A stretch of 64,000 bases of DNA, from positions 46,193 through 110,192 of the IMG/VR virus record IMGVR_UViG_2864804954_000001; one strand, written 5' to 3'. A model generated the notes under the pieces. That model made no database searches and was not told the DNA's origin. It saw nothing but the letters and a program-made list of their open reading frames with translations. The DNA is from a virus. Lineage: Duplodnaviria > Heunggongvirae > Uroviricota > Caudoviricetes. This document shows positions 5,586 to 34,616 of this stretch, in pieces (position 1 is the stretch's first letter; the number at the start of each line of letters is the position of its first letter). The translations under genes and the position numbers were made by a program.

Positions 5586-6830
5586 CTAAATGGAAATACC
5601 ACCAATTTCAAGTTTGCGAACAGGAAATTCCAACTCGATGCAATATCCCGCTGCATCGGCTGAGTGTTCTACGCCTGCGTCTTTATCGACGTCGCGACTT
5701 CCTGGCTTGTAGATGGTCTGCTCGAATGAGTTAATGAGGTGCTTGCAGGATTCGTCGATGCGCAAACGGATTTTGCCGTCCGCTGATCTAAGCATCCTGT
5801 TCACCGCATTGACGCGGTCGGCAATTGGTGGGTGCTTTTTGCGGTTCTTGATTCGGACAAAGCCCTTCTCCCGCATGATGTCCAAGTCGGTCTCACCCCT
5901 TGCGTGTTGACGCTGACCACTCGCAGGGTCAGGATAGATCACGACTTGTCGTTGGTATTTCCACAGCTTCTCGTCCAACGCATCGCAGATTTCCTGCGTG
6001 TTTGAACCGTACTGCACGATCTCATCAACCGCCCAAACTTCACCATTCGGCTGAGGTTGGAAAATGACGGTACTCATTGGGTCAATGTTGAAGTCCATCC
6101 CCACCCAAATTGGCAGAGCTGGATTGAACTTGTATTTCCCGACGTGTTCGTCACGGTCAAAGGCGTAGTACACACGTCCACTCATTGTCTCGAACGAAGC
6201 AAGGAACTCCTGCTTGAACGATTTGTCGTCCATATCGGCTTTCGCTGCTGCGATCTCCGACAATGGAATGAACGGTGAGGTGATGGTTGGAAACTGCCAT
6301 GACTCCCATTGGCCTGTCCGCAGCTTGTGTGGGTCTTTGCCTTGTTTGTAAACAGAGTAAAGACAGTTGTAAGCCTTCGGTGTCCCAATGAAGATGGCGT
6401 GACCACCAGTGTCGGCAAGCGTCGGTCGCAATACTTTGGTCCAAGTGTCTTCGTCCATGTCTTGATATTCATCAAGTACAAGGAAGTTGATACCTACACC
6501 ACGTAAGGAATCGGCTTTATCCGCACCTTTGAGTTCGATGCGCGAACCATTAACCAAACGAACGGTTAAGTTCGATTCATTGATCTTGGCAATCCAGGCA
6601 CGGGGAATTGCGTCGAGTAACGCAAGCCACATGATCTGCTTTGCCATTTTGTAGGTTGGCGCAACGTACCAAATCAACTGCTTTGGCTTTTGCGCTTTAG
6701 AGATCATCAGCACTTTGGAGAGCTGCGTCTTGCCCCAACGACGACCCGCTACGACACAGCGAAAACGAGCCTTCGATTGGTACACTTCCATTTGCTTAGG
6801 GTGTAATGCGAGCTTTTCCTTTAGTCCCAT
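5586..6830 (-). CDS. terL: terminase large subunit (414 aa)
   Basis: Walker A VVAGRRWGKT near the N-terminus and a Walker B-like LVLDE. C-terminal nuclease-like acidic residues. Confidence 0.8.
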   Translation of the reverse strand: MGLKEKLALHPKQMEVYQSKARFRCVVAGRRWGKTQLSKVLMISKAQKPKQLIWYVAPTYKMAKQIMWLALLDAIPRAWIAKINESNLTVRLVNGSRIELKGADKADSLRGVGINFLVLDEYQDMDEDTWTKVLRPTLADTGGHAIFIGTPKAYNCLYSVYKQGKDPHKLRTGQWESWQFPTITSPFIPLSEIAAAKADMDDKSFKQEFLASFETMSGRVYYAFDRDEHVGKYKFNPALPIWVGMDFNIDPMSTVIFQPQPNGEVWAVDEIVQYGSNTQEICDALDEKLWKYQRQVVIYPDPASGQRQHARGETDLDIMREKGFVRIKNRKKHPPIADRVNAVNRMLRSADGKIRLRIDESCKHLINSFEQTIYKPGSRDVDKDAGVEHSADAAGYCIELEFPVRKLEIGGISI

Positions 6831-7568: not shown

Positions 7569-7956
7569 TGTGGTATGCCAAGACGTACCATAGCGCACAA
7601 GACAGAGCCAGTGCTTCGGTATCGAATGGGATTGTCAGATGATGCTCATCGTTGAATACAAACGAAGCGATGAACATTGGTGAGTATTCTTCCCCACGTT
7701 TACGCTTCACAAAATCAATCGACGGGAAAATAAGAGGGTCTAGCCCGATGCGTTGCAGTTCAGGCATTGTGGCGTCAATATCACCACAGTAATCAGGAGC
7801 AATTGAGCAGCCGAACTGTTCGCTTCGTACCGCCTGATCGTCGAGCATGTGAGTGTTAAAACCGAGGAGGTAATCAATTTCTGAATTGGCTTGTGCGCCT
7901 GGGGAGAAGTCGTCCCCGATGATTAGAACTTCGTGTTCCGTAGTTGACTTGGGCAT
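7564..7956 (-). CDS. hypothetical protein (130 aa)
   Basis: ORF with RBS GCAAGG. Preceded by the 45-bp promoter-like repeat R2 and palindromic element. Confidence 0.45.
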   Translation of the reverse strand: MPKSTTEHEVLIIGDDFSPGAQANSEIDYLLGFNTHMLDDQAVRSEQFGCSIAPDYCGDIDATMPELQRIGLDPLIFPSIDFVKRKRGEEYSPMFIASFVFNDEHHLTIPFDTEALALSCALWYVLAYHT

Positions 7957-7983
7957 CCTTGCCGCTCCCGTGTATTAGTAATT

Positions 7984-8008
7984 AAGTAAGTCACGGATGA
8001 CTATATTA
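7984..8008. promoter_or_regulatory. palindromic element PAL
   Basis: TAAGTAAGTCACGGATGACTATATT, between repeat R2 and the gene 7956 start. Confidence 0.45.
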
Positions 8009-8050
8009 ATATATACGATAGCGGTAGGGATACCCAAGTTCACCCAAGTT
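8001..8050 (-). repeat. 45-bp promoter-like repeat R2 (minus orientation) upstream of gene 7564-7956
   Basis: Minus: CTTGGGTGAACTTGGGTATCCCTACCGCTATCGTATATATTAATATAG. Confidence 0.45.
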
Positions 8051-8061
8051 GCGGAGGATGG

Positions 8062-13697: not shown

Positions 13698-14003
13698 ATG
13701 AATGACAAGTTTGTGCCGCTAGAGGCAAGCGAGTTCTATCGCAACAAAGGCTTAAAGCGCGTTTCGGTCACTTTGACTGATGGCACAATTGCCTTTCTTG
13801 AGGACAAGCGTCAAGAGTTCAGCGCAATCAAGACCACCAAGCAAGGTGATGTTGTGGATGCGCTAGTTGCCACTTATCTTGACAACCCACAGTTTGCAGC
13901 TGCCGTAGACGAAACCTTACGCAACATCCTTGATCAGAAGGTGATGCAGAAGATGGGTCGCAAAGAAGGTTGGCGCAAAGACAAGTCGGATGACTCGAAG
14001 TAA
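13698..14003 (+). CDS. hypothetical protein (101 aa)
   Basis: Plus-strand ORF downstream of the helicase, followed by a terminator. Confidence 0.45.
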   Translation: MNDKFVPLEASEFYRNKGLKRVSVTLTDGTIAFLEDKRQEFSAIKTTKQGDVVDALVATYLDNPQFAAAVDETLRNILDQKVMQKMGRKEGWRKDKSDDSK

Positions 14004-14019
14004 CCCTCTCAGATCACAC

Positions 14020-14047
14020 AGAACGCTCCATGTGAGCGTTTTTTTAC
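14020..14047 (+). terminator. intrinsic terminator of plus-strand island
   Basis: AACGCTC-catgt-GAGCGTT followed by TTTTTTT. Confidence 0.6.
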
Positions 14048-14257
14048 GCTTATAGTTTGCTAGACAGTGCTTTGCTGTAACGTGTGAAATTGCGCAGCTC
14101 AGAGCCATATACGACGTTTTGCGATCTTACACGTACAGTCAGAGGCTTGCGTAAAGTTGATTTTGATGTATGATGAACCCAAACGAGTGTAGTGACTTGT
14201 TTGACCTGTAAAAGCTCAGTCGGAAACGATTGGGCTTTTGCTTTTTTCTGTATGCTA

Positions 14258-14342
14258 ATTTTCCCAAATACCCACCCCTCTTTTTCCTCCCATCCTCCCA
14301 AGTTCCCAAATTGGTAACTCCCCAAATTCCAATCTTCCCAAG
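14258..14342. repeat. strand-biased C-rich tract with CCCAA(G/A)TT units
   Basis: TTCCCAAATACCCACCCCTCTTTTTCCTCCCATCCTCCCAAGTTCCCAAATTGG...CCCCAAATTCCAATCTTCCCAAGG. Related CCCAAGTT units occur in R1-R3. Confidence 0.4.
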
Positions 14343-14642
14343 GCTGAACGCGTGCCGCATCTTGCCCTGTGCCGATGTTTGGCGATCTGTCGTTGGAAGT
14401 ATAAGGACAAGGTATCCACCACCCCATCCTGGAAATATAAGGAGGTCGTCGGAGGTCGGAGATTGAGGAAGGCTATGCACACGAAGGTTCGCGAAATTCC
14501 TAAGACTTCGCTTGTATATTATTTGATCAATTGATTCAGGTCTTGCTTAGTGTGTCGCGTCGCGTCGCGTGTTGCATCATCACTACATAGAAAAAAGCAT
14601 AGTGCTTTATACACTATGCTCTATATTGCGTTGTAATGCGTT

Positions 14643-15912: not shown

Positions 15913-16184
15913 CATATAATTTTAATTATTTTTTGTTTGATCACTGATTATTCAATCAATTTTATTTGCAAAAATAACTATTGATTCAATATTTAAACTA
16001 TGTTACTCGCACGCACGCGCTCATTTATATGCAGTCAAAACTATACCGCTTGAATGCTGGAAATTTCGGGGTGGGAAATGGCTGTTTTTTGATGATTTTT
16101 TGACCGCACCTGACCGACGCACCAAGGACGCACCAAGGCGATTTCCAGGTCGGAGGTGGAGACTAATGGCGATGGCTCGTTAGG

Positions 16185-16290
16185 GGCAGGCGCTTTAGGA
16201 AAAATGTCAGCCCGCCCAAGGACTTTGAAGGCGCATGTTGGTGCAGGCGCTTTTAGGAAATAGTCAGCTCGCCCAAGGGTTTCTCGTTAG
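16185..16290. repeat. tandem 46-bp direct repeats
   Basis: GCAGGCGCTTTAGGAAAAATGTCAGCCCGCCCAAGGACTTTGAAGG and GCAGGCGCTTTTAGGAAATAGTCAGCTCGCCCAAGGGTTTCTCG. A third diverged copy lies at 18535-18580. Confidence 0.5.
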
Positions 16291-16960: not shown

Positions 16961-16994
16961 GCTTACTACACTAGGCGTAGGGTAGATGCAGATA

Positions 16995-17135
16995 GGTGAC
17001 AATGTTGCCTGCGAAAGCCTGATCTAGCCTTGGATCGGCCTGTGCCTGCCTTTGCCTGTGGCCGCCTGAATGTGCCTCGGAAAGTTTTGGGTGTGCCTGA
17101 GCCTGTAAATGCCTGCATGAGCCTGTAAATGCCGT
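16995..17135. repeat. GCCTG pentamer cluster and 15-bp direct repeat
   Basis: At least 10 GCCTG/GTGCCTG units. GAGCCTGTAAATGCC occurs twice (17099, 17119). Confidence 0.45.
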
Positions 17136-18012: not shown

Positions 18013-18081
18013 TTGTTCAGCATTGCCCAAGGACGGTAGAGAGAATGGAAAGAGCCACCGCAATGATGGCTCTGTGTGGAG

Positions 18082-18312
18082 TTAGCAGGTGTGCCATTCA
18101 CCTACTATGTCCAGATCATGCACGCCAACCGCCATGCACTGCCCTGTCGGCTTCCAGATGTTGAAAGCTCTTGGGTGAAGTTTGCCGCGAAACATTTTCC
18201 ATACCAACCCTTTAACAGAGAAAGTGCCACGACCCTTCGCCTCATGCACAGTCACTCGACTGCCATTGCGTGTACGGTATTCGCCAGGTTTTGTTATTTC
18301 AAAATTTTCCAT
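18082..18312 (-). CDS. hypothetical early protein (76 aa)
   Basis: ORF with leader TATCATGACTCTATCGAAACGCACAACGAGAG directly upstream. Confidence 0.4.
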   Translation of the reverse strand: MENFEITKPGEYRTRNGSRVTVHEAKGRGTFSVKGLVWKMFRGKLHPRAFNIWKPTGQCMAVGVHDLDIVGEWHTC

Positions 18313-18319
18313 TGTTAAA

Positions 18320-19815
18320 CTCTCGTTGTGCGTTTCGATAGAGTCATGATAGACCGCAGACGGTGGGTTTCAACGCTTGGCTCAGGCAGTTTTGCATTTG
18401 TCCTCTCTCTACCGTAATAACAGCCCAAGGACGCGCCTTTGTCGCCAGTCTTCACCAAGGGGACGCCGTGGACGATCGGTGGAAATAAAAAAGCCAGCTC
18501 CGAAATTAATCTGGAACTGGCTCTTGGTTGTGTGTAGGTGCTTTAGGAAATATTCAGCTTGGAAAAAGGATTTTGAAGTTTAAAATTTTTCCTTAATTTT
18601 AATCTTTAAATTTAATCCTCCTTTCCATCGTGAAAACCTTGGAGAAGGAAACTGCCCCCCCTTACCCCCCGTGGCTTTAAATGGCTCATTTTTGGGAGAG
18701 TAAGGAGGAAGGCAATTTCTCTTGTCCTTGGCTAACACGAAGAAAGGAGGATTACTCTTTCCACATTTGCTAAACCTCGACCCAAGCAAACCGCACCCCT
18801 ATCGAAAGCAATACGTCCTGACGATTACCCAGTCAGAAACTAATCTAGGGCGAATGATAAGTCAGTGGTGACTATTTGGCAATATAAGTTTTGGGATTGG
18901 CGGTGGATTTTTAACAAGGCAATTCATAGGCTCGCATTCGCTCGCTCTCCTACAGTCCTCTCTACAGTATTCTTACCTACATACATCTCTCCTATGTTCC
19001 TCTATGTATTCCTCTCTACCGTACTACCTACATACATACTCTCTACGTTATTACTCCATGTGTGAATCCTCTCTACCGTAGTTATTGTCTTCCTTCTCTC
19101 TACCGTGGTTGTTCTCTTTATTGTTGGTTTTCTGCTTTGTGTTTAATAAGGTCTTTTTGATAGGTGTATGGAAAATTTTGGAGCTGTTCTGATTTGGGTG
19201 AATTAAGATTCTTTTTTGTGTAGGCGTATGGGTAACTTGGGAGACTTGGGGATTTGTCTCTCTACCGTAATATATAAATATATTCTTCCTGTTATTTATA
19301 TTTATTGCGGTGTGAACTTGGGAGTTTATGGAAATATGGGAATATGGGAATATTCCTTACCATATTTCTAGCCTGCGAGCCTGACGTTTTTATTTGCCTG
19401 AGTGCCTGCGGTTTTATTGTGCCTAGTATTTATTAATTCTCTCTCATTTGCGTTCTAAGCGTGTTTAGTTTGTTTGTGCTGTCGTTTATCGTTTTCTTTC
19501 TTAAAGTGTCTCTATGAGCGAATTAGAGCGGTTTTATCGCATGTTTTATATCTTTGTTTGACGGTTAAGTCGAATACTCTCCTGCGTTAAGTTAGATGAA
19601 AGGATTTATTAAATGATTGATGCAAGTATTAAATGTTTTCTTTAGGATTATCAATGGCTTATTATGTGTTTTGCCTTGGGAATATTTATGTACAAAAAAT
19701 AAGCGATCTAGGTGGTCTAAATCGCTTATTACATCATTGTGATGGAGTCTCTATTATCTCAGTGTGATCTTGGAAATCAGTCTGTTTAAACTTGTGCTTT
19801 GTCTTGTTCATACAA
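18320..19815. repeat. 1.5 kb non-coding region with iteron-like repeats
   Basis: No credible ORF. Contains CTCTCTACCGT(A/G) at least five times, TACCTACATACAT twice, the 46-bp GCAGGCGCTTTAGGAAA-type repeat, GCCTG clusters, TTGGGAG/TATGGGAATATGGGAAT tandem units and an AT-rich core. Confidence 0.5.
18856..18875. promoter_or_regulatory. palindromic element PAL (inverted-flank variant)
   Basis: GATAAGTCAGTGGTGACTAT in the iteron region. Confidence 0.4.
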
Positions 19816-20178
19816 TTAGCTCCAACCGTATGCTGTTTGTCCATTGCTAAAGTGCGATGTCATCGCGTCCAAGTTGACATACATATCTTGCGAAACTTCG
19901 TAAAGGTCTCCTGACGGTTCAAAGTCATTAATGTCGCTTAGGATTACACCGATTGCGTCGATTAAGTTGCAGTCCAATGCACTTAGGTCATGCGATGAAT
20001 GGACGCAAAAGTTTGAATCATCACACACAGAAGGAGAGATCGGACGCGAGAATGGAGTAACTTCGTTGTTGTAGATATGTAGGACGATGTCACCGCTTAA
20101 ACCAACCTTTTCAGATTCGGTTGACTTTAGGAGTGCGAAGCCCGTCGAACCGATGCGCGATATTTGCAAAGTTTTCAT
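19816..20178 (-). CDS. hypothetical early protein (120 aa)
   Basis: Leader GCATAATACATTTATCGAAACAAACAACGG, no SD. Confidence 0.45.
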   Translation of the reverse strand: MKTLQISRIGSTGFALLKSTESEKVGLSGDIVLHIYNNEVTPFSRPISPSVCDDSNFCVHSSHDLSALDCNLIDAIGVILSDINDFEPSGDLYEVSQDMYVNLDAMTSHFSNGQTAYGWS

Positions 20179-34419: not shown

Positions 34420-34616
34420 GCCTTTAGTCTCTTATATACCGTGATTGAATTGTGACGCATGATGCTTGGAAAACATGACGTCAAAAGATTTAGCCAAAAG
34501 AAATCCCAAGTACCGCGAAGTGACTTGGGAAGACTTGGGGTCCGCGAGTGCTATCGTATATTTATATAAACCGCTATTAACTAATTTATATTTAATACGA
34601 TCGCGGGTTGGGAAAA

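Follow-up and report, generated by a model that had tools for sequence, protein, structure and literature searches.

The gene-free gap at positions 18320-19815 of the window, as we call the whole 64,000-nt stretch of viral DNA analyzed, is a composite non-coding control region in an early/accessory gene block and not one element. Its minus strand, read from 18846 to 18484, very probably constitutes an RNA gene, and the predicted product, a hairpin RNA of ~360 nt, is previously undescribed and falls outside any described family. With moderate confidence we explain the gap as such a composite region, in which the hairpin RNA would act as a cis leader and the sequence upstream of it would form an array of sites for regulator or partition proteins.

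The gap and the element that carries it

Judged from its sequence, the window belongs to a phage-plasmid of ~111 kb that is related to the 'AB group' of Acinetobacter phage-plasmids (Pfeifer et al. 2021, PMC7969092). A Logan contig of 110,906 bp is 100% identical to the window and also carries, on the upstream side of DnaE, genes for ParA and a tyrosine recombinase together with a repressor-like gene, and the gene order of the element is syntenic with that of circular A. baumannii plasmids of 104-114 kb. The size of ~110 kb, DnaE, ParA with the recombinase, the SSU5-/Nickie-like structural genes, and the gene order are common to the element and the AB group, but nucleotide identity in the conserved genes is only ~66-68%, and the GC content is 45-50% in the element against 41-42% in the Acinetobacter loci. 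The element also encodes gp32-like, RecA/UvsX-like, and UvsW-type helicase proteins. The gap region has zero matches by megablast against 50,697 phage records and zero by 'distant' blastn against plasmids, and the IMG/VR search with the 120-aa flanking protein revealed no relatives. An exact-pattern scan of IMG/VR with the conserved block of the RNA returned the A. baumannii lineage alone. In the A. baumannii records examined, the gap is either devoid of annotated genes or reached by no more than the edge of a 'hypothetical protein'.

The original prediction saw no credible coding capacity here, and the stretch is indeed non-coding. The longest open reading frames have 66-69 codons and start with GTG or TTG, and a Pfam search at E≤0.1 found nothing for the three longest of them and two shorter ones. 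In ten assemblies containing the flanking gene, genes called within the gap are limited to one 37-aa frame (three loci) and an 87-aa edge gene in one relative, the latter within an insertion that is absent from the window. The flanking genes encode proteins of 120 aa (upstream; 19816-20178, minus strand) and 76 aa (downstream; 18082-18312). Upstream, the non-coding region is bounded by the intrinsic terminator of the 120-aa gene, which a scan placed at 19698-19730 on the minus strand (14 pairs in the stem, then TTTTGTACAT); the terminator sequence is kept in five of six close relatives and has diverged in L007.

At the opposite end, a promoter scan and motif search delineated the control region of the 76-aa gene (18346-18433, minus strand). 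It comprises a sigma-70-type promoter, TTGAAA-16-TATCAT (18373-18346), and the shared start region TATCGAAAC. In front of this promoter stand GCCCAAGGAC (18423-18433) and one copy of the repeat CTCTCTACCGT (18405-18415). The same set of motifs, rearranged, recurs at 18025-18045 upstream of the next gene. Another short motif, TTTCGATA, has 13 copies in the window, seven of them within 15.3-20.3 kb.

The compositional claims made for the gap were confirmed as well. The AT-rich tract placed at 19255-19330 corresponds to a GC content of 0.32-0.33 at 19200-19349, and the strand bias takes the form of a pyrimidine-rich plus strand at 18950-19100 (GC skew of -0.55 to -0.70) and a G+T-rich one at 19100-19700. 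Genome termini or a packaging site were rejected, as six independent assemblies traverse the gap uninterrupted. Nearby contig ends in relatives were also dismissed as termini, since they sit in tandem repeats, repeat clusters, or a G-run and resemble assembly breaks.

The predicted hairpin RNA and its conservation

The candidate transcription unit occupies 18484-18846 on the minus strand, with the 5' end placed from the -10 box and the 3' end at the terminator U-tract. Its promoter (18854-18882, minus strand; 10/12 in the promoter scan) consists of TTGCCA, a 17-nt spacer that contains the palindrome PAL, AGTCACCACTGACT (18860-18873), and TATCAT; the -35 box, the palindrome, and the -10 box are conserved across the lineages aligned. 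The window has 15 such palindromes in all, and the combination of PAL and a -10-like hexamer occurs 15 times in its intergenic regions and also upstream of rep in relatives.

Several parts can be distinguished in the RNA, all on the minus strand. A 5' hairpin, H1 (CTGAC...GTCAG, 18816-18838), was identified by folding, and its stem covaries by eye between CACTGC/GCAGTG, CACCGC/GCGGTG, CCGACG/CGTCGG, CCTGCA/TGCAGG, and CTGTAG/CTACAG. On its 3' side follow a conserved pyrimidine motif and a G-run, GCTTTCGATAGGGG, which read GCTTCTTTTCTGGGGG in GC-rich lineages. The core of the RNA, from 18756 to 18609, is a long hairpin domain of ~57 bp that scores 172 bits with covariance model R1. Its outer helix is formed by TAATCCTCCTTTC..CGTG and CACG..GAAAGGAGGATTA, and in its inner helix a pyrimidine tract (plus-strand positions 18694-18710) pairs with GGGGGG-TAA-GGGGGGG (plus-strand positions 18655-18670). 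The A+T-rich, A-rich 3' tail (18531-18608) lies largely in a second low-GC tract (0.28 at 18550-18649) and includes GGTGCTTTAGGAAA (18537-18575), a repeat also present at 16189 and 16246, from which this third copy has diverged. This tail is the most variable part of the RNA among close relatives, and in the GC-rich lineages its composition is A/C-rich.

The RNA ends in a predicted intrinsic terminator (18483-18523), AGCCAGTTCC...GGAGCTGGCT followed by TTTTTTATT, which was recognized by eye and by folding; the pattern scan missed it because the loop exceeds the limit of 8 set for the scan. In L008, two substitutions in the terminator both keep the pairing (C-G to U.G and U.G to U-A), and in the L023 lineage a terminator is present at the equivalent place after the RNA. 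No clear terminator follows the RNA in L001 and in the GC-rich lineages. Thus, the folding strand has its own promoter (18882-18854) and terminator (18523-18483), the latter in some lineages only.

The minimum free energy of the minus strand is -139.3 kcal/mol (z = -7.96), 25 kcal/mol better than that of the opposite strand (-114.3, z = -5.47). Since many of the pairs are G.U, the structure is strand-specific, which points to RNA. An alternative pairing is possible in L001, where the 3' arm of a local hairpin can also pair with a distal segment (CGGAATG/CATTCCG versus CATTCCGATGTG/CACATCGGAATG).

Model R1, constructed from the clade of the window only, has full-length same-strand matches, in syntenic position, in at least 12 and up to 14 further lineages. 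The lineages possessing the RNA span a GC content of 41-59% and include clinical Acinetobacter baumannii phage-plasmids. In the reverse direction, model R2, from which the clade of the window was left out, scores 104 bits on the window (E 5e-23), and nhmmer also found homologues of the RNA at the syntenic place in many loci. RNAalifold applied to a plain MAFFT alignment recovered the structure only in pieces, owing to misalignment of the variable loops; this alignment was therefore replaced by one made with the covariance model.

In alignment A7, in which several rows are close relatives of one another and whose pair counts lean towards the structure of the model, to which it was fitted, compensatory changes occur in 47 of 57 pairs. 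Pairing is kept in 93.0% of cells, as compared with 64.9% in shuffles, none of 500 of which was as high, and 52-62% in slid controls. Further, the nucleotides that separate the two G-runs and those that interrupt the pyrimidine tract covary (TAA/TTA, AA/TT, TTT/AAA, TA/TA), and one compensatory A-U to U-A change was observed within the close clade. The structure is thus conserved with compensatory changes in independent lineages, and the models work across clades in both directions.

No match at the gathering score of Rfam 15 was found in the whole window, and none at E≤5 in 18300-19830; a tRNA/tmRNA search was also negative. No hairpin RNA was detected up to 9 kb from the helicase gene in the cultured relatives Nican01, BUCTxx99, RHph_N1_15, Cyrano, and JGB6, and a literature search found no paper describing the RNA. 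The original prediction had offered structured non-coding RNA as one reading of the gap. That reading is supported for about a quarter of the region, in its promoter-distal third, where a promoter, a covarying hairpin, a terminator, and wide conservation coincide.

The upstream repeat array and the replication-origin question

The ~800 nt upstream of the RNA gene (18890-19697) are a fast-evolving short-repeat array that probably serves as a set of protein-binding sites. Every repeat originally listed for the gap is present, within a few bases of the position claimed for it, and non-random. The most conspicuous is CTCTCTACCGT(A/G), which forms an array at 18945-19268 on the plus strand (19258, 19096, 19069, and 19012) interleaved with two copies of TACCTACATACAT (18974 and 19025). 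The five exact plus-strand copies of CTCTCTACCGT (the fifth being that at 18405) agree with the initial description, but the variant copy, with one mismatch, is at 18958 and not at 18950, and an inverted exact copy at 18033 had been missed. Allowing at most one mismatch, the 64-kb window contains eight matches against 0.45 expected, and none of 100 shuffles reaches eight. The array differs between relatives of 95-99% identity by 12-nt slippage and patch replacement. One copy of CTCTCTACCGT stands upstream of each of two neighboring promoters, in opposite orientations; these are ordinary promoters, and the motif appears to be placed, in either orientation, as an operator would be.

Three further groups of sites follow. 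An inverted and tandem heptad element ATATGG/CCATAT (GAAATATGGTAAGGAATATTCCCATATTCCCATATTTCC on the minus strand) was found at 19327-19368 as inverted repeat I21 and by TRF, which reports 3.4 tandem copies of TATGGGAA at 19327-19353. Positions 19332-19368 are 94.6% identical over 37 nt to L177 4375-4411, located between parA and the tyrosine recombinase gene, so that the gap and a site beside the par operon have this repeat in common, as expected from the sequence of a ParA partition site. An A. baumannii relative has an equivalent duplication with its own sequence (L001 6915-6966 versus L021 26723-26774). We consider the ATATGG element a candidate partition-protein site, either a centromere or an operator. 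The CTTGGG units at 19236, 19245, and 19317 belong to the motif CCCAAGT, present in 29 copies across the window against 5.2 expected. Here they make up a module (19233-19322) of a doublet (19235-19250) and a single site (19316-19322) flanking the AT-rich near-palindrome ATATATTTATATATT. At least four CCCAAGT modules exist in the genome, with similar ones at ~7940-8055 and ~34500-34600 of the window. The doublet recurs with 100% identity at L177 6016-6033 and, inverted, at 5913-5929, both in the gap between a repressor-like and a CobT-like gene, and L023 has the same arrangement, ATATATTTATATATT included. Finally, four copies of GCCTG/CAGGC (19371, 19379, 19396, and 19404) form a cluster at 19371-19424 with a 25-nt unit repeated 2.2 times; clusters of the same kind precede other early promoters (16990-17130 and 17531), and CAGGC/AGGCA clusters occupy the equivalent position in the relatives L001, L023, and L045.

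The array is not alignable between lineages, as nhmmer with the upstream array found no match outside the close clade. In GC-rich relatives it shrinks to only ~110 nt, and the RNA gene is kept there. In two clades, each having a sequence of its own, the array sites have paralogous copies at parA and in the repressor region. Some of the array consists of additional copies of sites that stand beside parA and in the repressor region, which suggests that regulators or partition proteins bind here. The proteins bound may be the element's own regulators or partition proteins, which would tune the region between the plasmid and the lytic state. Protein binding alone leaves the purine/pyrimidine strand asymmetry of the array unexplained. 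On the gene-sense (minus) strand, the CTCTCTACCGT array is a purine-rich tract, ACGGTAGAGAG, and a purine-rich block with GTAGAGA-like motifs lies upstream of the RNA gene in most lineages. For this tract a CsrA sponge was considered and dropped, because the GGA count is not above the expectation for purine-only sequence.

The original prediction took the repeats for iterons which, with the AT-rich tract, would mark a phage replication origin, and this part is unsupported. The core of CTCTCTACCGT has 11-14 nt, and its copies are separated by 27, 54, 57, 162, and 607 nt, far from the regular ~17-22-bp pattern of iterons; the flanking genes examined include no initiator gene adjacent to the repeats, and no DnaA box with at most one mismatch was found in the region. 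A GC-skew check, proposed as a means of locating the origin, gave sign changes at ~11 and ~22 kb that track gene strand and content and not a replication switch. A canonical Rep_3 origin was found beside rep in three related lineages of Acinetobacter phage-plasmids; it comprises five or six 22-bp TTTCGGT... iterons spaced by 22-31 bp together with an AT-rich tract and a DnaA box. The Rep_3 origin and rep of pDA33098-108 are located ~62 kb from the syntenic gap, which lies at 77.3-79.1 kb there, and none of the Rep_3 iterons of that element occurs in the gap.

One might still suppose that CTCTCTACCGT binds an initiator, either at a vegetative or plasmid origin or at a distant copy-number control array like incA of P1. 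Seven copies within 1.3 kb are far more than chance would produce, the core CGGTAG is common to CTCTCTACCGT and the TTTCGGTAGTTA iterons in the Rep_3 origin of the A. baumannii relative, an AT-rich tract adjoins, and a search for Rep_3 homologues assigned none to the contig of the window. We nevertheless regard this as very unlikely, given the short core, the irregular spacing, and the lack of an initiator gene next to the repeats. The A. baumannii relative has its Rep_3 iterons beside rep only, with none in the syntenic gap, two more Acinetobacter lineages have complete Rep_3 origins beside rep, and CTCTCTACCGT also precedes two ordinary promoters in either orientation. Evidently, a repeat-rich, AT-rich, and gene-free stretch is insufficient alone to identify an origin here.

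Another kind of origin, primed by a transcript as in ColE1 RNA II or T4 oriF/oriG, could be active in the lytic state. In this scheme, the PAL promoter would fire on induction, the folded RNA with its G-runs would form a persistent RNA-DNA hybrid within the A+T-rich tract, either at the hairpin or past it, the 3' end of the RNA would prime the leading strand, and the upstream repeats would assemble origin-binding or partition proteins. The order of parts agrees with it: a promoter, then G6-N3-G7 at +190 to +300, then a tract with a GC content of 0.28, next to iteron-like repeats and a par-type site. The sense strand is purine-rich, and purine-rich sense strands favor stable hybrids; the element also has the genes for gp32-like, RecA/UvsX-like, and UvsW-type helicase proteins, a set that works with R-loop origins in T4. 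P1 has separate origins, oriR and oriL, and as the Rep_3 origin of the relatives would serve plasmid maintenance, there is likewise room for a separate lytic origin. Yet the G-runs are selected for RNA-RNA pairing, as their spacer covaries with the pyrimidine tract, and in GC-rich lineages the tail is A/C-rich and not an unwinding element, and the upstream array is nearly gone. Together with the DnaA box search and the local GC-skew changes that track gene content, this makes a transcript-primed origin unlikely.

In a more specific and quite improbable form, AB-type phage-plasmids would have a separate lytic origin, primed or licensed by the hairpin RNA in the manner of RNA II. The choice between the local hairpin and the long-range helix would decide whether a persistent R-loop arises at the G-run and the A-rich segment, the UvsW-type helicase would remove the R-loop, and the flanking par-like and repressor-region-like sites would silence the origin in the plasmid state. 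If true, a 110-kb phage would possess, distinct from its Rep_3 plasmid origin, a transcript-primed one with a structured RNA dedicated to it.

Possible roles of the RNA and known counterparts

Most likely, the hairpin RNA is a leader RNA of the lytic program. It would be made together with the other PAL-driven transcripts (replication, structural, rep) and would act mainly in cis, as a structured leader heading the downstream block of accessory genes, where it would govern read-through, processing, or stability of the downstream transcript. This could involve cleavage by RNase III, an action of the antitermination type, or competition of the local hairpin with the long-range helix. In the GC-rich lineages, tightly packed same-strand genes directly follow the RNA, with no new PAL promoter or T-run terminator in between. 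The cis-leader mechanism is proposed tentatively: the variable flanking genes and the strong terminator after the RNA in two lineages fit a stand-alone trans-acting RNA equally well.

Such a trans-acting RNA of the lytic program could be a decoy or binding platform for a host or phage protein (e.g., as an anti-defense RNA in the accessory block with ArdA), a regulator that depends on Hfq, or a precursor that RNase III would cleave. It would account for the separate promoter of the RNA and the strong terminator that ends it in two lineages, for its constancy while the neighboring genes vary, for its location among anti-restriction genes (ArdA and a match to the anti-restriction family phrog_2059), and for the combination of an A-rich tail with a U-tail; the presence of an own Hfq in the A. 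baumannii relative would fit as well. However, BLAST found no extended complementarity to the RNA elsewhere in the 64-kb window, in most lineages there is no terminator and reading frames follow directly, and any partner protein is putative; we consider action in trans possible but doubtful.

AB-type phage-plasmids are common in clinical Acinetobacter baumannii. What is new here is a conserved, strongly structured ~360-nt RNA in a gap of these elements, outside Rfam, and a layer of dispersed cis-elements (PAL promoters, CCCAAGT doublets, and the duplicated par-type site) that appears to wire regulation. If the RNA controls read-through into the accessory/anti-restriction block, or primes lytic replication, it would provide a handle on the plasmid-lytic switch. 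The covariance model is ready for annotating such elements.

The closest counterparts of a cis leader are the phage leader RNAs exemplified by the lambda pR'-tR' '6S' transcript with Q antitermination and by the HK022 put RNA. Like these, the region would have a phage-controlled promoter, a structured leader of a few hundred nucleotides, an intrinsic terminator, and genes beyond it, and in several lineages the RNA runs straight into the operon. In contrast to put (~65-70 nt), it combines a single ~57-bp hairpin with a 5' domain and is far larger than the known antitermination RNAs; no element of Q, N, or Nus type was identified, there is no sequence or Rfam similarity to the lambda and HK022 leaders, and read-through here is only proposed.

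The transcript-primed origins, ColE1 RNA II, T4 oriF/oriG, and mitochondrial CSB II (G6AG8), resemble the region in the sequence of promoter, folded or G-rich RNA, and A+T-rich tract downstream. The difference is that the G-runs here pair, with covariation, with the pyrimidine tract of the RNA; moreover, the AT-rich tract is not conserved in GC-rich lineages, and no analogue of the antisense RNA I was seen.

The dispersed sites can be compared with those of N15, which has four scattered centromere sites, and P1, which has many C1 operators. Similarly, the ATATGG element, the CCCAAGT doublets, and PAL recur genome-wide, including the par and immunity regions, but the sequences are unrelated, and binding here is putative. 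Finally, clustered direct repeats beside an AT-rich tract are a feature that the gap has in common with P1 oriR/incA and with Rep_3 iteron origins such as those of the Acinetobacter R3 types of Rep_3 plasmids (PMC9927589), whereas the five or six regular 22-bp iterons, the DnaA box, and the rep gene alongside that distinguish the Rep_3 origins are absent here.

Relatives of a phage-plasmid-type genome

Nearly all genes of the window lie on the minus strand, and a 110,906-bp contig from run SRR12415433 is 100% identical to it. The DnaE-type polymerase has at most 42% identity to those of cultured phages (RHEph10, nickie, SSU5, and their relatives). Ribonucleotide reductase, SbcC, terminase, and portal proteins are also encoded, and just beyond the window the contig has genes for ParA, its 142-aa partner, and a tyrosine recombinase, as well as a repressor-like gene of 135 aa. 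The closest annotated relatives are circular, non-mobilizable 104-114-kb plasmids of Acinetobacter baumannii, for example pDA33098-108, which have the gene order in common with the window. Since plasmids of this type constitute the "AB group" of phage-plasmids (PMC7969092), the window is, as judged by gene order, a phage-plasmid-type genome.

The ORF-free gap at ~18320-19815 is covered by seven assemblies, 95-100% identical to the window (one covers it partly). About 150 loci from genomes, metagenomes, and IMG/VR were collected by way of the nearby UvsW-type helicase, which served as the anchor. The order of elements in the gap is recognizable in A. baumannii (locus L001), A. geminorum (L023), and a betaproteobacterial MAG (L024), and the part alignable between lineages is the promoter-to-tail segment only. 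The helicase gene of the close relative L008 (10031-12817) encodes 928 aa versus 573 aa, and the Hom_end_hint (intein/homing endonuclease) domain in this longer version points to an intein insertion.

Layout of the gap and the PAL promoters

The repeats listed in the original prediction were all recovered, within a few bases of where they had been placed. There are eight matches to CTCTCTACCGT (0.45 expected), 29 copies of CCCAAGT (5.2 expected), and 35 copies of the palindrome AGTCAC..TGACT (5 expected), and the 8-nt and 25-nt tandem units were borne out by TRF. The claimed strand bias and lack of coding capacity also hold: composition is strongly strand-asymmetric, the longest ORF is at most 69 aa, none of five ORFs tested, the three longest among them, has a Pfam match, and the gap is essentially empty in gene calls of independent assemblies.

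In gene-sense order on the minus strand, the gap contains the terminator of a 120-aa gene (19730-19698), an A/C-rich stretch, a CAGGC cluster, an inverted and tandem ATATGG element, CCCAAGT sites around an AT-rich near-palindrome, a purine-rich array of ACGGTAGAGAG repeats, a predicted promoter TTGCCA-17-TATCAT with a palindrome as spacer (18882-18854), a conserved sequence of ~360 nt, a predicted terminator hairpin with a U-tract (18523-18483), and the sigma-70-type promoter of a 76-aa gene (18373-18346). The neighboring small genes each have a similar promoter, a common TATCGAAAC start region, and their own terminator. Clusters of GCCTG/CAGGC at 16990-17130, 17531, and 19371-19404 (10, 1, and 4 copies, respectively) each follow a terminator and precede the next early promoter. 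Of the 24 CCWWGG hexamers in the window, 15 are concentrated within 13.9-20.4 kb, and relatives have CCTAGG or CCATGG at these places.

The ~20-bp palindrome AAAAGTAAGTCAC-N3-GTGACTTAC, or PAL, which forms the promoter spacer, has 15 copies in the window (1657, 2893, 5559, 7545, 7989, 11841, 18860, 23043, 33608, 37955, 38804, 41523, 44072, 45414, and 57073). All are intergenic, directly ahead of a TATAAT-like hexamer, and are followed by replication, nucleotide metabolism, and structural genes; in two Acinetobacter relatives, PAL is also found ahead of rep. These dispersed sites look like promoters or operators of a class that is specific to the element. Because the RNA promoter has the same PAL as replication and structural genes, the RNA would be co-regulated with the main phage program. 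The small genes around it have ordinary sigma-70-type promoters.

A conserved hairpin RNA

A structured noncoding RNA or a replication origin had been proposed for the gap; the former is supported for 18484-18846, the latter is not. The predicted RNA (minus strand, 18846->18484) forms a long rod-like hairpin, recovered alike in single-sequence folds of seven lineages, with -139.3 kcal/mol (z = -7.96) in the window versus -114.3 kcal/mol (z = -5.47) for the opposite strand. Covariance model R1 (149 positions, 57 pairs), built from the window clade alone, has full-length matches at the syntenic position in L001, L032, L023 with L104-L110, L024, L132, L158, L161, L154, L164, L150, and L101/102, and the strand of the best match in each agrees with that of the window.

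Pairs were counted in an alignment of 14 diverse sequences (GC 41-59%), none of them from the clade that yielded R1. Standard pairs fill 93.0% of cells, versus 64.9 ± 1.4% in shuffles; the observed pairing is somewhat inflated by the fitting of the alignment to the model. Both sides changed in 47 of the 57 pairs (32.3 in shuffles), with double changes in 193 cells (62 in shuffles). None of 500 shuffles reached any one of these observed values, and sliding the 3' partners by 1-3 columns lowers pairing to 52-62%. A second model, made from these 14 sequences, recovers the window at 104 bits (E 5e-23) and brings in L152 and L155.

Of all single features, the inner helix is the clearest: a pyrimidine tract pairs there with the two G-runs downstream of it. 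The G-run spacer covaries with the tract interruption: TAA/TTA in the window, AA/TT in L001, TTT/AAA in L023, L161, and L150, and TA/TA in L024, L158, and L132. Many pairs are G.U, and thus the structure would be confined to the minus strand, which also has the promoter. A double change from A-U to U-A occurs within the close clade, with an intermediate in L012, and both substitutions in the L008 terminator preserve pairing. There is no match at this RNA in Rfam 15, and we found no paper describing such a hairpin; comparative evidence strongly supports the predicted RNA, which represents a new family.

The G-runs (18655-18670) are G6, G7, or G8 among near-identical relatives, and IMG/VR contig 2700989413_000006 (a 107-kb assembly of the A. 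baumannii element) breaks off right within the G-run, which is probably an artefact of sequencing or assembly. A ~46-bp repeat (GCAGGCGCTTTAGGAAA...CAGC..CCCAAGG) has two copies at 16183-16285, in the 16.0-16.4 kb noncoding gap, and one diverged copy in the RNA 3' tail (18537-18575); the tail motif ATATTTCCTAAA is common to the window and A. baumannii RNAs. A second conserved noncoding element (14391-14531, minus strand) shares 78% identity with the A. baumannii plasmid, above the identity of neighboring genes, and was found by nhmmer also in many lineages lacking the hairpin RNA. It has no stable fold (z = +1.78) and no Rfam match, and a plus-strand 19-codon ORF with a good ribosome-binding site is located at ~14476.

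A strong predicted terminator follows the RNA in the window and L023 lineages, and no clear one does in L001. In GC-rich lineages, packed same-strand ORFs come directly after it, with neither a further PAL promoter nor a T-run in between. Two folds compete, as a local hairpin can give up its 3' arm to the outer helix of the long hairpin. These folds and the terminator/downstream-ORF pattern favor a cis-acting leader. The neighboring genes vary between lineages, so that action in trans is nearly as likely as a cis-acting leader.

The repeat array and the origin question

The array upstream of the RNA is not alignable between lineages. Among close assemblies, variable columns make up ~3% of it, versus ~7% of the adjacent 76-aa gene (by our own count), and its changes include a 12-nt slippage deletion and patch replacement inside the purine array. 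The ATATGG element (19368->19332) has a counterpart of 94.6% identity elsewhere in the genome, located between parA and the recombinase gene. An equivalent duplication, in a sequence of its own, is present in the A. baumannii plasmid, where the second site lies between ParA and the integrase gene. The CCCAAGT doublet with its AT-rich core is repeated as a large inverted repeat in the 1-kb repressor-like/CobT-like gap. At least four such modules occur per genome (window ~7940-8055, ~34500-34600, and 19233-19322; 5913-6033 of L177, from the same genome outside the window), with cores bounded by CGCTATCGTAT/ATACGATAGCG-type inverted repeats, and one encloses a PAL promoter. Single CTCTCTACCGT copies lie upstream of two neighboring promoters in opposite orientations. 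Since dispersed, clade-specific, orientation-independent sites typify DNA-binding regulators and partition proteins, the simplest reading of the array is a cluster of candidate binding sites for such proteins.

The proposed phage replication origin is not supported: the repeats are short and irregular, with no DnaA boxes in the gap and no adjacent initiator gene. Some lineages with the RNA have only ~110 nt of the array left. In its layout of a promoter, a G-run RNA, and an AT-rich tail, and with gp32-, UvsX-, and UvsW-like genes in the element, the gap resembles transcript-primed origins, a reading we consider unlikely.

The Rep of pDA33098-108 is of type R3-T9 (PMC9927589). In this plasmid, a canonical Rep_3 origin immediately precedes rep, beside dnaB and ~62 kb from the syntenic gap, with five TTCGGTAGTTA iteron cores (four in tandem, one beside the rep start), a TTATCCACA box, and an AT-rich tract; the syntenic gap contains no such iterons at up to one mismatch. 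CGGTAG, common to CTCTCTACCGT and the A. baumannii iterons, speaks for a Rep-binding role of the CTCTCTACCGT repeats, a reading we consider slightly less likely than transcript priming. Two further Acinetobacter lineages have the same origin design with TTTCGGTGACTGAAAATGTC iterons. The complete Rep_3 origins of Acinetobacter relatives (13900-14420 in pDA33098-108; 1180-1460 in both L193 and L195) contain 5-6 22-bp TTTCGGT... iterons, the TTATCCACA box, and a AAATTTAAATTT-rich tract, and sit between lysis genes and rep, with Hfq and DnaB genes after rep. Compared with these origins, the repeats of the window are shorter and their spacing is irregular.
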